From the sequence record MZ726791.1: a DNA stretch of 64,000 nt. One strand, written 5' to 3'. Position 1 is the stretch's first letter; each line of letters begins with the position of its first letter. The position numbers and the translations under genes are program-made. The notes under the pieces were generated by a model that made no database searches, had not been told where the DNA came from, and saw only the letters and a list, made by a program, of their open reading frames with translations. Of this stretch, positions 16,312 through 23,819 are shown piece by piece. This DNA comes from Escherichia phage vB_EcoM_ASO1A.

Positions 16312-16905
16312 TTAAATCAGTGTTTCCAGAACTGTTTTTAATGATGACTTGGTTGTCTGATAAAAATGAGTAAATCCATTGTTGTTATCGAATATCTGCA
16401 TCATAACAGCATCTCCCTTGATTGGGTACACTCGGATATCATAGTGAAACCCATTAAAGACACAAGAACCACTACAGAATGCTCTAAAGTCATCCACTGA
16501 GATGTACTCTTCATGACCTGTGATTTTTATACAAACACCTTTACTCGGTCTCTTAGGGTTGATATCTTCCATCACAGACATACTCTGTCCACCAAGAGAT
16601 ACCATAGTGACCACTTTACGGTTCTTCTGTTTAAAGTACATCTTAACTTTCTGCAAAGTGTCTTCATAGAACGGATAAGACCTTTCTACAAAGATTCCTT
16701 CAAGTGGCTCTTTACCATTTTCAACTTCTCTGTTATGCCGTACTGCAAAGATAATTTGTTCGAACCAGTCAAGATTTTCTTCGGAGAGTGCTTCCCGAAT
16801 ATCACTCCAATCAAGAACTAGATAGTTACCTTCAACTTCTTTTAAGTTATCTTTTTCCATATCTATCACACCATTATCGTAAAACTTGGTAAGCTGGAAC
16901 TGCAA
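16312..16905 (-). CDS. hypothetical protein
   Basis: 197-aa ORF, last gene of leftward block. Confidence 0.5.
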   Translation of the reverse strand: MQFQLTKFYDNGVIDMEKDNLKEVEGNYLVLDWSDIREALSEENLDWFEQIIFAVRHNREVENGKEPLEGIFVERSYPFYEDTLQKVKMYFKQKNRKVVTMVSLGGQSMSVMEDINPKRPSKGVCIKITGHEEYISVDDFRAFCSGSCVFNGFHYDIRVYPIKGDAVMMQIFDNNNGFTHFYQTTKSSLKTVLETLI

Positions 16906-17338
16906 ACTTGTTGCCGTTGTTCTTAATGAGGTCTTCTTCTGTTACTAAGAATGTAATCCCACACAAGTGTGTGTATTGGCTATCATACTCAAATATTTTA
17001 AGTAAGTATTTACCATCGTGATAAACAGATTCTACTACACCTTTTGCAACAATCTTTCCAGTCTTGAAATCTTTAAGAGGGTATACATTACCAACTTTAG
17101 GGGCTGTTTTCATCTCAGGTTCTTTTAGTTTCTCACTAACTTCTACATCACCTAGTAAGTGAGAACTCTCAAACGCTACATATTGCATATAAGCTTCTGA
17201 GCATTCCCAGATAAAACAATGTACAAGAATCTTAGCAGCATGTCTTGAGCAATTCAACTTATCACAAATTTCTTTGTACATTTCATCTTTAGTTGAGTTG
17301 TCAAGCATTGCTTTTCGAACTGTTTCTTTAACTTTCAT
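16874..17338 (-). CDS. hypothetical protein
   Basis: 154-aa ORF in tightly packed leftward array. Confidence 0.5.
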   Translation of the reverse strand: MKVKETVRKAMLDNSTKDEMYKEICDKLNCSRHAAKILVHCFIWECSEAYMQYVAFESSHLLGDVEVSEKLKEPEMKTAPKVGNVYPLKDFKTGKIVAKGVVESVYHDGKYLLKIFEYDSQYTHLCGITFLVTEEDLIKNNGNKFAVPAYQVLR

Positions 17339-17756
17339 AAGCTCTCCGAATAACTCTATTAAGCATCTCTAAAGTCAGCTTTCCAGATTCTAAATGTGGC
17401 ATAACAAGCTTTAAAGCTTTTTCAACATCATGCACAACATCTATTATACCTTCTTCATAGGCTTCTACAAGGATATCTTTTACGTTTTGTGATTTACCTT
17501 TTTGTGGTATCACTAGACGCATATCAAACTCATTTGCTTGAGGATGGTTCTTACCACGCCAGAAACCGTCCTTATCAAAGCTTATAAAATTATCCTCATT
17601 AAAATTAATACCACAAACAACAAACTTATCTAGCACTATGCAGTTGAGAGGGTAATCATCACTTGCATCATTCATTCCAAGAAACTTAACAGTAGCTATA
17701 TACCTCTGTGTCTTTGCATCTACAATGTCAAGTTCTTTACCTATGTACTCTTTCAT
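17328..17756 (-). CDS. hypothetical protein
   Basis: 142-aa ORF. Confidence 0.5.
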   Translation of the reverse strand: MKEYIGKELDIVDAKTQRYIATVKFLGMNDASDDYPLNCIVLDKFVVCGINFNEDNFISFDKDGFWRGKNHPQANEFDMRLVIPQKGKSQNVKDILVEAYEEGIIDVVHDVEKALKLVMPHLESGKLTLEMLNRVIRRAYES

Positions 17757-17759
17757 CTC

Positions 17760-18032
17760 TTAAATCCTATCAATTTGAAACTCTTCAGGTAACTCAGCCA
17801 CCACTTTTAAATAGTAAGCATCAGAGATTGTATGCTTTGTCTCATAGCTACCATTCTTAATCCAGTTATAATTTTCTGGTATTCCATCATCATTACAAAA
17901 ACCTGAGTACATAATTGCTCTGTGGATTATATTTTTATTAGAGTATGCAACATCTACAATATAGTATGTTTTTTCTTTCCAACCACCTTCAGGTTTACAA
18001 ATACCTGAGATACCCTCTAATTCTGGTGTCAT
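17760..18032 (-). CDS. hypothetical protein
   Basis: 90-aa ORF. Confidence 0.45.
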   Translation of the reverse strand: MTPELEGISGICKPEGGWKEKTYYIVDVAYSNKNIIHRAIMYSGFCNDDGIPENYNWIKNGSYETKHTISDAYYLKVVAELPEEFQIDRI

Positions 18033-18085
18033 TTCACTACCTTCTAAGTTTCTACAAAGGGGCTATCAAGTAACCCCTCAAGTTA

Positions 18086-21702: not shown

Positions 21703-22586
21703 TATGCCTCCCCTGCTGGATTAACTGTAACTGTTGCTGCATTAGATGTTACAGAGCCACCTGCGCCAGTAACTACACAGGTGTAGCTTCCTGAATCAGC
21801 AGCGGTTGCTCCTTCTTTGGTGTAGGTTGCAGTAGTTGCATCGAGGATGTCTTCCTCATCTTTCTTCCACTGATAACCTGTTGCACCTGTTGCCACAACA
21901 TTCAACGTTAAGGTCTCACCTTCATTGATTTCTTGATTGGTTGGCTGTTGAGTGATGACAGGAAGTGCATTCACAGTCACTGTTGCTGCATCTGAGGTAA
22001 CACTTGTTCCACCCTCTCCAGATACAACACAAGTGTATGAACCAGCATCAGAAGGTGCTACTGACTGTTTTGTGTAAGTTGCAGAATTGGCACTAGGGAT
22101 GTCCTCACTATCCTTCTTCCACTGATATCCAGTGGCGTTAGTTGCTAGAATGCTTAGAGTAAGTGTGCCACCCTCATTGACTGTTTGACCTGTCGGTTGC
22201 TGAGTAATTGCTGGTGGCTTAATAGCATCCTTCAACTTAGCATTCAACATTGAGAACGGCTTAACTCTTGCCAACCATTCACAGTAAATTGTGTCAACAT
22301 CTTTACCATTGATGATTGCATACTGCAAATCCATGAAGAAATCAGCAGTTCTCATCTGTGCACCAACACTGTAAAGCAATTCATCACTAAATGGAACTTT
22401 GTAGTCTGGTTTGTAGTCAAACTTCTCAACTTCTGCAATATCAGCTTCAGGCCAATATGAACTATAGGTAAGTGGTAAAATAGCCTCTTGATATGTTCTA
22501 AAATCATACCTCTTACCAGCCTTTACATTTGCAATGAAACCCTTCACAAACTCTTTGAAGTCTGGGTAAGTCTTTGCTTTAATCAT
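21702..22586 (-). CDS. protein with two C-terminal Ig-like repeats; N-terminal domain paralogous to upstream gene
   Basis: Two ~80-aa repeats (ITQQPT.Q..NEG.TLTL...ATGATGYQWKKD...SGSYTCVV.G.GG..TS.AATVTVN); N-terminus aligns with 22583..22954 product. Confidence 0.55.
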   Translation of the reverse strand: MIKAKTYPDFKEFVKGFIANVKAGKRYDFRTYQEAILPLTYSSYWPEADIAEVEKFDYKPDYKVPFSDELLYSVGAQMRTADFFMDLQYAIINGKDVDTIYCEWLARVKPFSMLNAKLKDAIKPPAITQQPTGQTVNEGGTLTLSILATNATGYQWKKDSEDIPSANSATYTKQSVAPSDAGSYTCVVSGEGGTSVTSDAATVTVNALPVITQQPTNQEINEGETLTLNVVATGATGYQWKKDEEDILDATTATYTKEGATAADSGSYTCVVTGAGGSVTSNAATVTVNPAGEA

Positions 22587-22954
22587 TTCTTTTTAGCCTC
22601 TAAATGTGCGTTTAGTCTAAAATAACCTTTGTGATGCGGAGATACATCACCAACAACAATACCTTTAACCTTATAGCCTTTACCAATTACATACTGGATA
22701 TCCATAAGGAATCTTCCAAGTCCAACAATATGGAACATTGGATATAATAGGTTCTCAGAATCTGGAATATTGATTTCAGGTTTGTAGGTACGCTGTTCGA
22801 TTGTTGGTGTAATATCTTCTTCAGGCCATTTGCTGAGTCTCCATGTCAAAGGTGTTGGGATAACATCATTAAGGTTGTACCTTTCACCATTTTGCACGGA
22901 ATTGATATAGGATTGTAGGAAGCAATAAAAGTCTTTTGCACTCTTAGCTTTCAT
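22583..22954 (-). CDS. paralogue of N-terminal domain of 21702..22586 product
   Basis: Shared KAK..DF....RY...WPE.DI...YKP...P.S..LLY...F.MD.QY.I..G pattern. Confidence 0.5.
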   Translation of the reverse strand: MKAKSAKDFYCFLQSYINSVQNGERYNLNDVIPTPLTWRLSKWPEEDITPTIEQRTYKPEINIPDSENLLYPMFHIVGLGRFLMDIQYVIGKGYKVKGIVVGDVSPHHKGYFRLNAHLEAKKK

Positions 22955-23001
22955 TAAATATCCTTATAAATAGTTAAAGGGGCATCAGCCCCTATTCACA
23001 C

Positions 23002-23592
23002 TTAAGCTTTGGACTTAAGTAGGTTCTTAAGTTTTTTAAGATTCATACTCTCATCAAACTTAAAACCAAATCCATTGACATAATCAATGAACTCGGATTT
23101 CTTACTGAGTGACAATGCGTAACTCATATCAAAGTTCTTACTTGTTTCTGCGTCTGGACTAGAGTTCACATCAAATGAAATTTCTGTAGGCTCTTGCTTA
23201 CTCTTTCTCATGTTATCAACCAACAAACATGTATAATTTGCTGGATAGAAGTTTACACTACCATCAACGTAGCTGTACTTATTATTATGGATAAGGTTTG
23301 AAAATACCTTAAGGAATGTTTCTGAGTCGTGGCAAACAAGTTTGAATTGGCTGCTCTCTCCAAGCGCAACTAATGAGTACGGACTTTCACTATCAAAGTC
23401 ATAATTTTGATTCGATGCCGTCACTGTTACACGCATCAAGTTATTAGCAATAGTCTTCTGTTTAAAAGAATTTTGAACATAGTGAAGACCTCTATCACAC
23501 TGATTGACTAGCTCTTTAAGCAGGTCATTTGCATACGGTGAGTTAATTGATACAGAGCCATCACTATTGTAATTAAAACTTACTGTTAACAT
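23002..23592 (-). CDS. hypothetical protein
   Basis: 196-aa ORF. Confidence 0.5.
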   Translation of the reverse strand: MLTVSFNYNSDGSVSINSPYANDLLKELVNQCDRGLHYVQNSFKQKTIANNLMRVTVTASNQNYDFDSESPYSLVALGESSQFKLVCHDSETFLKVFSNLIHNNKYSYVDGSVNFYPANYTCLLVDNMRKSKQEPTEISFDVNSSPDAETSKNFDMSYALSLSKKSEFIDYVNGFGFKFDESMNLKKLKNLLKSKA

Positions 23593-23819
23593 TTTTCAGT
23601 TCTCCTGCGGTTTATAATTTTGCTGCAATAGAGAAACGAAGTAAACTCACTGGAAGAAACCATTAAGTGTTGTTCACTAGATTGAGCCATTGCCCTGAAA
23701 TACATTCCAGTCAAAGCATCATAGTGACTATTCTTTCCAATTGAGGTTATATAGCCATGACTCTTTGCAGTTTGATATAAATCTATAATATCTGCGATTT
23801 CTAATTGGGAACTACACAT
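23586..23819 (-). CDS. hypothetical protein
   Basis: 77-aa ORF, first gene of leftward block. Confidence 0.4.
   Translation of the reverse strand: MCSSQLEIADIIDLYQTAKSHGYITSIGKNSHYDALTGMYFRAMAQSSEQHLMVSSSEFTSFLYCSKIINRRRTEKC

Follow-up and report, generated by a model that had tools for sequence, protein, structure and literature searches.

A leftward gene block of an Escherichia Felixounavirus: a probable capsid-decoration and endolysin cassette with lineage-specific accessory genes

What is the role of a block of small genes that is transcribed against both of its neighbors and whose products mostly resemble nothing of known function? We asked this question of Escherichia phage vB_EcoM_ASO1A (record MZ726791.1), in which we analyzed a stretch of 64,000 nucleotides, here called the window, and within it the leftward block at 16312-23819. 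An earlier note on this DNA had recognized a lysozyme and an immunoglobulin (Ig)-repeat protein in the block and had suggested that it was a seat of host-takeover and anti-defense genes. Our analysis leads to a different answer, which we hold to be quite probable: the block is a conserved middle-to-late cassette for capsid decoration and endolysin, extended by two lineage-specific strings of accessory genes.

The window belongs to a Felixounavirus genome. The best match of the 7.5-kb block was Escherichia phage vB_EcoM_ASO1B (95% identity over 100% of the query), in whose record the block begins at the identical coordinate, 16312. Altogether the block matched 252 phage records, nearly all of them from Felixounavirus or close relatives, and about 200 of these covered 80% or more of the block at 90-95% identity. 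Based on gene-for-gene maps to ASO1B, JLBYU28, Bas63, Felix O1 and Moogle, the block can be equated with the leftward region ORF40-24 of Felix O1 and with g128-g112 of Bas63, both already published. The Felix O1 genome paper divided that genome into four "transcriptons," one of which comprises genes 40-24 (Whichard et al. 2010, PMC3185647), and remarked on the divergent transcription between genes 40 and 41 as odd (PMC3185647). We use the Bas63 gene numbers throughout and give the corresponding open reading frame (ORF) of the Felix O1 record, in which ORF35 is the lysin and ORF36 the Ig protein.

In the ORF listing, minus-strand frames run without interruption from 23983 to 16312. They make up 19 genes, 18 of them within 16312-23819 and the 19th (23801-23962 or 23801-23983, depending on its start) just past that end; the count of about 17 in the earlier note agrees with the annotation of ORF24-40 in Felix O1. 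Between neighbors there is either an overlap of 1-19 nt or a gap of no more than 68 nt. Every ORF of the block matched a PHROG family with E ≤ 4e-23, and each gene is annotated in at least one related record; these PHROG matches, together with the conservation of the whole 7.5 kb, indicate that the ORFs are real genes. Units on the plus strand flank the block on either side, the left one stopping at a terminator at 14704-14723 and the right one opening with the DUF5681 gene at 24212, and the GC and AT skews are negative over 17-24 kb and positive in most of the flanking sequence. The block is indeed opposed to both flanking units, as had been claimed.

We refer to the three parts of the block as sub-operons A (23983-21238), B (21186-19189) and C (19120-16312). 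The genes of sub-operon A, which lie nearest the divergent junction, are as follows:

23801..23983, minus strand: g128 (ORF40), a small basic protein and the first gene of sub-operon A; matches phrog_8138 (E = 1e-41, residues 8-60)
23586..23819, minus strand: g127 (ORF39), 77 amino acids (aa); matches phrog_5064 (E = 1e-55); 100% identical in Bas63
23002..23592, minus strand: g126 (ORF38), 196 aa; present in all Ounavirinae genera examined
22583..22954, minus strand: g125 (ORF37), 123 aa; Ig-less paralogue of the Hex-Dec capsid-binding domain
21702..22586, minus strand: g124 (ORF36), Hex-Dec; capsid-binding domain (residues 1-122) followed by two Ig-like domains
21238..21702, minus strand: g123 (ORF35), endolysin of the GH24, T4/P22 type

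The Ig-repeat protein carries the capsid-decoration part of this reading. Against PDB sequences it matched chain 9ncf_S of Bas63 (E = 3e-244) and chain 9c2d_S, which is gp20 of Shigella phage Sf14 (E = 6e-165). Residues 1-122 alone matched the same two chains (E = 2e-78 and 1e-69) and aligned with both residue for residue. Pfam confirmed the Ig repeats of the earlier note as two domains, at about 124-207 and 208-290 (Ig_3, E = 2e-22; I-set, E = 3e-15); tandem repeats underlying them were looked for at the DNA level and none were found. Cryo-electron microscopy (cryo-EM) has placed Hex-Dec, or gp20, as a monomer at the center of the facet-edge hexamers of the T=9 head, attached via its N-terminal domain, with the Ig-like domains pointing outward as in T4 Hoc (PMC12609058, PMC11821841). 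The two arginines through which the Sf14 protein makes salt bridges with the major capsid protein, Arg79 and Arg107 (PMC11821841), are present at identical positions in the ASO1A protein, and gp36 was detected in Felix O1 virions by mass spectrometry (PMC3185647). By homology, the Ig protein is identified as Hex-Dec, a Hoc-like decoration protein of hexamer centers. The gene is remote from the structural module, and widespread misannotation makes its product a tail protein (PMC12609058, PMC11821841); that label is wrong for the Ig gene, the product being a capsid decoration protein.

The endolysin was confirmed as well. The product of g123 matched PF00959 with E = 7e-41 and 140 bits against a gathering cut-off of 22.3, covering model positions 2-125 of 125, which upholds the assignment as a T4-type lysozyme; it also matched the endolysin family phrog_7 (E = 8e-58). 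The catalytic Glu-Asp-Thr residues near the N-terminus, compared with the T4 lysozyme pattern, can be read by eye from the translation in FFEG (Glu15), YEDSAG (Asp24) and IPTIGYG (Thr30). A search for a signal-anchor or transmembrane segment found none, with no 19-residue hydrophobic window reaching 1.6, and the enzyme is predicted to be soluble and holin-dependent rather than signal-anchored. In Felix O1, gp35 is the lysin and has no adjacent holin (PMC3185647).

These two genes sit in an arrangement that extends well beyond the genus. Using local tblastn and alignments, we compared Erwinia phage M7 and Salmonella phage SB18 (Kolesnikvirus), Hafnia phage SarahDanielle, Pectobacterium phage Wc4 and Citrobacter phage Moogle. 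The order common to the genera is one or two small genes, a g126 homologue of 185-207 aa (25-30% identity), Hex-Dec and the endolysin, with the g126 homologue always one or two genes upstream of Hex-Dec. A weak homologue of g128, for which the likely start is the ATG at 23962 behind AAGGAG (53 aa), was found by tblastn at the equivalent position in Erwinia phage M7, and genes of similar size stand at the position of g127 in Kolesnikvirus and the Hafnia phage. In the compared genera the cassette adjoins the DUF5681 gene and tRNA array, and the genes downstream of it differ. Since cassette A is conserved across genera and the downstream genes are lineage-specific, sub-operon A is therefore ancestral to the Ounavirinae and sub-operons B and C are accessory. 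In the scheme that we propose, sub-operon A would be an ancestral Ounavirinae cassette, active from the middle to the late period, that supplies Hex-Dec and a soluble GH24 endolysin; three conserved proteins (g128, g127 and g126) would accompany them, and g125 would be an addition in Felixounavirus and Mooglevirus.

Of the accompanying proteins, g126 was aligned across 17 sequences from three lineages. Its AlphaFold2 model (predicted local distance difference test, pLDDT, 80) consists of an alpha/beta domain (1-130), a disordered acidic linker (131-151) and three C-terminal helices that form a conserved module. The model had no fold match in the PDB (best E = 0.28), and a 10-sequence profile searched against the PDB returned nothing; relatives in BFVD are all uncharacterized proteins of Ounavirinae and some Pseudomonas myophages. 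We rejected two labels for this protein. A helix-extension-helix (HeH/SAP-type) module in the C-terminal helices is a resemblance by eye that no tool supported, and PF26097, with which two distant homologues are listed, gave no match when these were rerun against Pfam.

The neighboring g125 is where we depart from the claim that, apart from the lysozyme and the Ig protein, no product shows a motif: this held for 15 products and failed for g125, a recognizable paralogue of the Hex-Dec capsid-binding domain. It matched the window's own Hex-Dec in BLASTP (E = 9e-17, 38% identity), the Hex-Dec PHROG (E = 4e-15) and, over residues 2-117, chain 9ncf_S (phmmer, E = 6e-12). Its AlphaFold model is weak (pLDDT 61.5), and the best Foldseek matches among 350,542 PDB chains were 9c2d_S and 9ncf_S (probability 1.00 and 0.99; template modeling score 0.5), with the next match at E = 0.4. 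The homology spans the whole protein, which ends at residue 123, where the Ig repeats of Hex-Dec begin; neither Pfam nor the alignment showed an Ig-like domain in it. The protein is basic (isoelectric point, pI, 9.1, vs 4.6 for Hex-Dec), and the two capsid-contact arginines are not kept. The residues aligned with Arg79 and Arg107 are Gly78, found in 11 of 12 aligned g125 sequences (the twelfth has a gap), and His107, a position that is His or Gln in all 12.

At a query coverage of at least 80%, g125 was found in 232 of the 252 matching records (about 92%), all of the Felixounavirus or Mooglevirus type. Searches of Kolesnikvirus and the Hafnia phage did not find it and hit Hex-Dec alone. Related records label the gene "hypothetical protein" or "tail protein," and the structure papers on Hex-Dec do not mention a paralogue (PMC12609058, PMC11821841). 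We regard g125 as a small new annotation, a duplicate of the Hex-Dec capsid-binding domain. Overall the block offers little for discovery: annotated sequences of it exist from more than 200 phages, and transcript timing, virion proteomics, a knockout screen and the cryo-EM of one product are already published for it or its orthologues. The item with some novelty is this Ig-less paralogue.

The signals that could divide the transcription of the block are the following:

23984..24211, 228 bp: divergent intergenic region ahead of g128; the DUF5681 gene (plus strand) starts at 24212
24068-24039, minus strand: sigma70-like site, TTGTCA-N18-AATAGT
24036-24008, minus strand: sigma70-like site, TTGACT-N17-TACCAT
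21211..21260, minus strand: boundary of sub-operons A and B, promoter-like site plus terminator, between the lysozyme gene and g122
21260-21232, minus strand: promoter-like site, TTGACA-N17-TATCTT, 10/12 matches; a promoter is annotated there in ASO1B
21228-21211, minus strand: terminator hairpin, AGGCTCC-TTCG-GGAGCCT, then a T-run
19140..19192, minus strand: boundary of sub-operons B and C, promoter-like site plus terminator
19192-19164, minus strand: promoter-like site, TTGACC-N17-TATGAT, 10/12 matches
19163-19140, minus strand: terminator hairpin followed by a T-run; a terminator is annotated there in ASO1B
16278..16303, minus strand: terminator hairpin at the block end, followed by a T-run; also annotated in ASO1B

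A divergent promoter region had been expected at about 24000-24200, and the gap at 23984-24211 with its minus-strand sigma70-like sites bears this out; in Felix O1, P41 has been described in the equivalent gap (PMC3185647). The idea of a single leftward transcription unit did not survive. Two terminator-like hairpins, at 21228-21211 and 19163-19140, divide the block, and a promoter-like site accompanies each of them; we therefore read it as three units instead of one. Some of the promoter and terminator signals were marked independently by the ASO1B annotators. The internal terminators would partition transcription, we infer, into three sub-operons, all of them having their own sigma70-like promoter and terminator hairpin and presumably transcribed by the host RNA polymerase. 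A T4-type late promoter motif (TATAAATA) was considered and rejected: it occurs 3 times in the window vs 4.2 expected, and no copy is positioned to serve the genes of the block.

Downstream of the endolysin, sub-operons B and C contain these genes:

20788..21186, minus strand: g122 (ORF34), 132 aa; phrog_4266; no match in Pfam, NCBIfam or PDB
20400..20795, minus strand: g121 (ORF33), 131 aa, very acidic (pI 4.3)
20107..20400, minus strand: g120 (ORF32), 97 aa, acidic; phrog_4385
19770..20114, minus strand: g119 (ORF31), 114 aa, basic; phrog_4040
19189..19770, minus strand: g118 (ORF30), 193 aa; also in the Hafnia phage and Kolesnikvirus
18887..19120, minus strand: g117 (ORF28), 72-77 aa, basic (pI 9.9); phrog_4459
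18387..18890, minus strand: g116 (ORF27), membrane protein, 167 aa; phrog_4343, matching from residue 11 of the longer GTG-started ORF
18310..18405, minus strand: g115, conserved 31-aa micro-protein with a hydrophobic core; phrog_6279 (E = 4e-23); annotated in Bas63 and JLBYU28
18086..18310, minus strand: g114 (ORF26), 74 aa, Lys-rich tail; phrog_4457; 12-nt periodic tract at 18095-18162
17760-18032, minus strand: accessory gene, 90 aa, one of the pair at 17328..18032
17328-17756, minus strand: accessory gene, 142 aa, the other of that pair
16874..17338, minus strand: g113 (ORF25), 154 aa; phrog_4713 and phrog_9565
16312..16905, minus strand: g112 (ORF24), 182-197 aa (ATG at 16860 or TTG at 16905), the last gene of the block; phrog_4330; annotated as 16312-16860 in ASO1B

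Among the genes downstream of the endolysin, g118 is the only one for which homologues could be detected beyond Felixounavirus and Mooglevirus. Its family is small and restricted to these phages, an exhaustive HMMER scan of 1.84 billion representatives returning 13 proteins of 40-190 aa and no informative fusions. A reading of g118 as deaminase-like (SNAD1) or as DUF5092 was dropped: the matches were weak (E = 5e-4 and 0.012), more distant family members did not repeat them, the alignment shows no conserved catalytic His, Cys or Glu, and a profile search of the PDB was empty. The "D-alanyl-D-alanine carboxypeptidase" label that some GenBank records give to g121 likewise had no support from Pfam, NCBIfam, PHROG functions or the PDB, and the N-terminal helix-turn-helix match of g113 stayed below threshold (HTH_23, E = 0.086). 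The pair at 17328-18032, which matches phrog_7193 and phrog_9967, is present in ASO1B and JLBYU28 and absent from Bas63 and Felix O1; Felix O1 in turn carries an additional gene, ORF29, flanked by the genes that correspond to 18887-19120 and 19189-19770. At these places the block has gained or lost genes. Sub-operons B and C would thus be lineage-specific strings of small accessory genes that include a two-helix membrane protein, and the phage can probably do without most of these genes except in certain hosts.

Is the block nevertheless an island whose small proteins mainly bind and inhibit host enzymes or immune systems, as the earlier note proposed? We searched all 19 products against Pfam, PHROGs, NCBIfam and PADLOC, and the concatenated products against PDB sequences. 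Profile searches gave a function only to the lysozyme and the Ig protein, and PDB sequence matches were obtained only for Hex-Dec and g125. For 15 products nothing rose above noise in any of these searches, so the earlier statement that most products have no recognizable function is borne out, and routine housekeeping or structural roles were not what the profiles assigned to most members. Such small proteins, with no homologues found outside the Ounavirinae, are what a takeover or counter-defense island might contain. The same can be said of the turnover of gene content between genera and within the genus, the strongly acidic or basic character of several products and the host-dependent fitness reported for g114 and g116. 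The adjacent Ro60-like g130 (24665-26080) is, moreover, a validated counter of the ppl defense system (PMC11482910). On the other side, no product had a PADLOC defense-system match, and none was pointed to defense or counter-defense by Pfam, PHROGs or NCBIfam, with no dedicated anti-defense library searched; and the endolysin and a virion protein, both late-type functions, occupy the promoter-proximal third. Genes for host takeover are expected to be expressed early. By reverse transcription PCR (RT-PCR) in Felix O1, ORF24, 25, 26, 28, 29, 32, 33, 34, 35 and 38 peak at 25 min, ORF30, 36 and 37 at 60 min and only ORF31 at 5 min (PMC3185647), so that 13 of the 14 tested ORFs of the block have middle or late peaks (PMC3185647), which makes host takeover unlikely. 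Anti-defense is unproven, and it is weakened by the genome-wide knockout screen of Bas63 against 12 defense systems, in which the validated counters (g77, g79, g80, g84, g85 and g130) all lie outside g112-g128 (PMC11482910); for sub-operons B and C it stays conceivable, this screen covering only those 12 systems. Within the block the text of the screen names only the endolysin g123, as a trigger of retron Ec67 (PMC11482910). The paper on retron Eco2 does not mention an endolysin trigger, and the DRT7 trigger is Bas63-035, outside the block. We found no positive evidence for a takeover or anti-defense seat and, given the timing, the screen and the library searches, think such an island improbable as a description of the block. 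An accessory role in host interaction is possible for some members of the block, because sub-operons B and C differ between genera and in a few genes within the genus and because g114, g116 and g124 were more important in E. coli S17-1 (PMC11482910).

Two further explanations concern parts of the block. In the one, sub-operon A would be a morphogenesis-accessory cassette: the targets of g125 and g126 would be capsids or Hex-Dec and not the host, and the proteins would serve as chaperone, placeholder or competitor. The full-length homology of g125 to the capsid-binding domain speaks for this, as do its late peak at 60 min together with Hex-Dec (ORF37 and ORF36; PMC3185647) and the position of the g126 homologue, which adjoins Hex-Dec on its upstream side in genera without g125 and stands one gene farther off in those that have it. 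Yet neither g125 nor g126 appears in the virion mass-spectrometry lists of Felix O1 (PMC3185647) or Sf14 (PMC11821841), no cryo-EM density was reported on the non-edge hexamers (PMC12609058), both contact arginines are lost in g125, and g126 has no structural relative of known function; the idea is doubtful. Its more specific form, that g125 is a transient or competitive ligand of hexamer centers on non-edge hexamers or procapsids and so sets the place and number of Hex-Dec, is more doubtful still, and would make g125 a regulator of capsid decoration. The other explanation extends the lysis module: g116, possibly with the hydrophobic 31-aa g115, may be the missing holin or antiholin of the soluble endolysin. 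An endolysin without a secretion signal needs a holin, and none has been firmly identified in these phages, Felix O1 having only a candidate list and scattered lysis genes. By hydropathy, g116 has a soluble N-terminal domain of about 80 residues, two transmembrane helices (about 92-120 and 131-152 of the 177-aa ORF) and the highly charged C-terminal tail RVHKKRLKDSEVKLEEVSKE. This bears out the membrane protein that the earlier note drew at 18387-18920 as to its two hydrophobic helices and corrects its start, which is likely the ATG at 18890 rather than the GTG at 18920. The Hafnia phage encodes a topologically similar, unrelated protein at the equivalent relative place (we found no sequence similarity and reject homology in favor of topological analogy), and Erwinia phage M7 has, two genes past the endolysin, a small protein that by inspection seems to have two transmembrane helices. 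Against this, g116 belongs to another sub-operon than the endolysin, from which 2.3 kb, six genes and one terminator separate it; its soluble domain of about 80 residues is atypical of class II holins; and at 167 aa it departs from class I and II holins, which are small, have no large soluble domain and adjoin the endolysin. It is also absent from the published Felix O1 candidate list, the curators of Moogle named a putative holin in their paper yet left the g116 counterpart hypothetical, and the gene was reported to be non-essential on three of four hosts. We give the holin explanation very little credence. As a separate observation, gp004 of Erwinia phage M7 (77 aa, annotated "holin," L004 13415-13809) showed no hydrophobic segment when its translation was inspected, and the adjacent gp005 (54 aa) seemingly has two transmembrane helices, so this "holin" label may be one gene off.

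We thus return to the conserved cassette followed by accessory strings as the quite probable description of the block, and several points weigh against it. The promoter-like sites are not enriched over shuffled AT-rich sequence (38 found vs 32.5 ± 5.6 expected), so the promoter calls rest on position and conserved annotation, not on statistics. The late ORF30 adjoins the early ORF31 in one sub-operon, a misfit with a simple picture of one promoter for each unit. The timing comes from an end-point RT-PCR in one study, in Salmonella Typhi, in which ORF27, 39 and 40 are unreported (PMC3185647). Finally, the description of sub-operons B and C as mostly dispensable comes from the text of the Bas63 screen and not from per-gene scores; that text speaks of interspersed small hypothetical genes of varying essentiality at about 66-80 kb of Bas63 (PMC11482910). 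We infer that B and C are conditional accessory genes. For anti-defense searches in therapeutic phages of the Felix O1 type this becomes a matter of priority, the distal part at 16312-21186 being the lineage-variable accessory part and the proximal 2.7 kb a conserved cassette for late function.

Some features of the flanks are recorded here. The window starts at rIIA, and a rightward unit with the rII and spanin genes extends from position 1 to about 14.7 kb, followed by an ORF-free gap and then the leftward block. To the right of the block, a rightward unit comprises the DUF5681 gene, the Ro60-like gene, the tRNA array and the structural module, and is followed by a leftward unit for replication and nucleotide metabolism. 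The DUF5681 protein is encoded at 24212-24583 (PF18932, E = 7e-14), the 471-aa orthologue of the Ro60-like Bas63 gp130 at 24665-26080, and about 23 tRNA genes come directly after the latter. The left gap, at 14730-16270, is 1.55 kb long, AT-rich (GC 0.33) and enclosed by convergent terminators at 14704-14723 (plus strand) and 16303-16278 (minus strand). It is dense in short degenerate repeats (CTTGTTA, CTGTTAAG, CTTAAAAG, CTATAAAG) that occur in both orientations at spacings of 10-11, 20 and 31 nt; on the plus strand it holds 13 of the 18 copies of CTTGTTA in the window and 9 of the 15 copies of CTGTTAAG. Bas63, Felix O1 and Kolesnikvirus have an unannotated gap of about 1.4-1.7 kb at the corresponding position; in the Hafnia phage this stretch measures about 2 kb and includes a single doubtful ORF. 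A search of the left gap against Rfam gave no match. The gap resembles an iteron-type protein-binding array and is perhaps an origin.

Compared with known systems, the block of ASO1A is closest to ORF40-24 of Felix O1 and g128-g112 of Bas63 (MZ501086), with which it shares identical gene order and orientation, the divergent junction with the DUF5681, Ro60-like and tRNA unit, and the ORF-free gap at the left. The 17 block proteins shared with Bas63 are 85-100% identical; unlike both phages, ASO1A has the two extra genes at 17328-18032, and it is without ORF29 of Felix O1. Its endolysin resembles the T4/P22-type GH24 enzymes (PF00959) in the full-length model match and in its predicted soluble nature. 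It is unlike them in that its gene stands close neither to the spanins, which lie at about 5.3-5.9 kb of the window, nor to a recognized holin, as is known for this phage group. Hex-Dec of Bas63 (PDB 9NCF, chain S) and gp20 of Sf14 (PDB 9C2D, chain S) have the same layout as the ASO1A protein, a capsid-binding domain and then C-terminal Ig-like domains, and the number of Ig domains is two in ASO1A and Felix O1, three in Sf14 and four in Bas63. T4 Hoc is alike in being a monomer at hexamer centers whose Ig-like domains, arranged in a row, extend outward from the head. It belongs to a separate family, however: Hex-Dec carries its capsid-binding domain at the other terminus, this domain is larger and differs in topology, and, unlike T4 Hoc, Hex-Dec occupies the edge hexamers only (PMC12609058).

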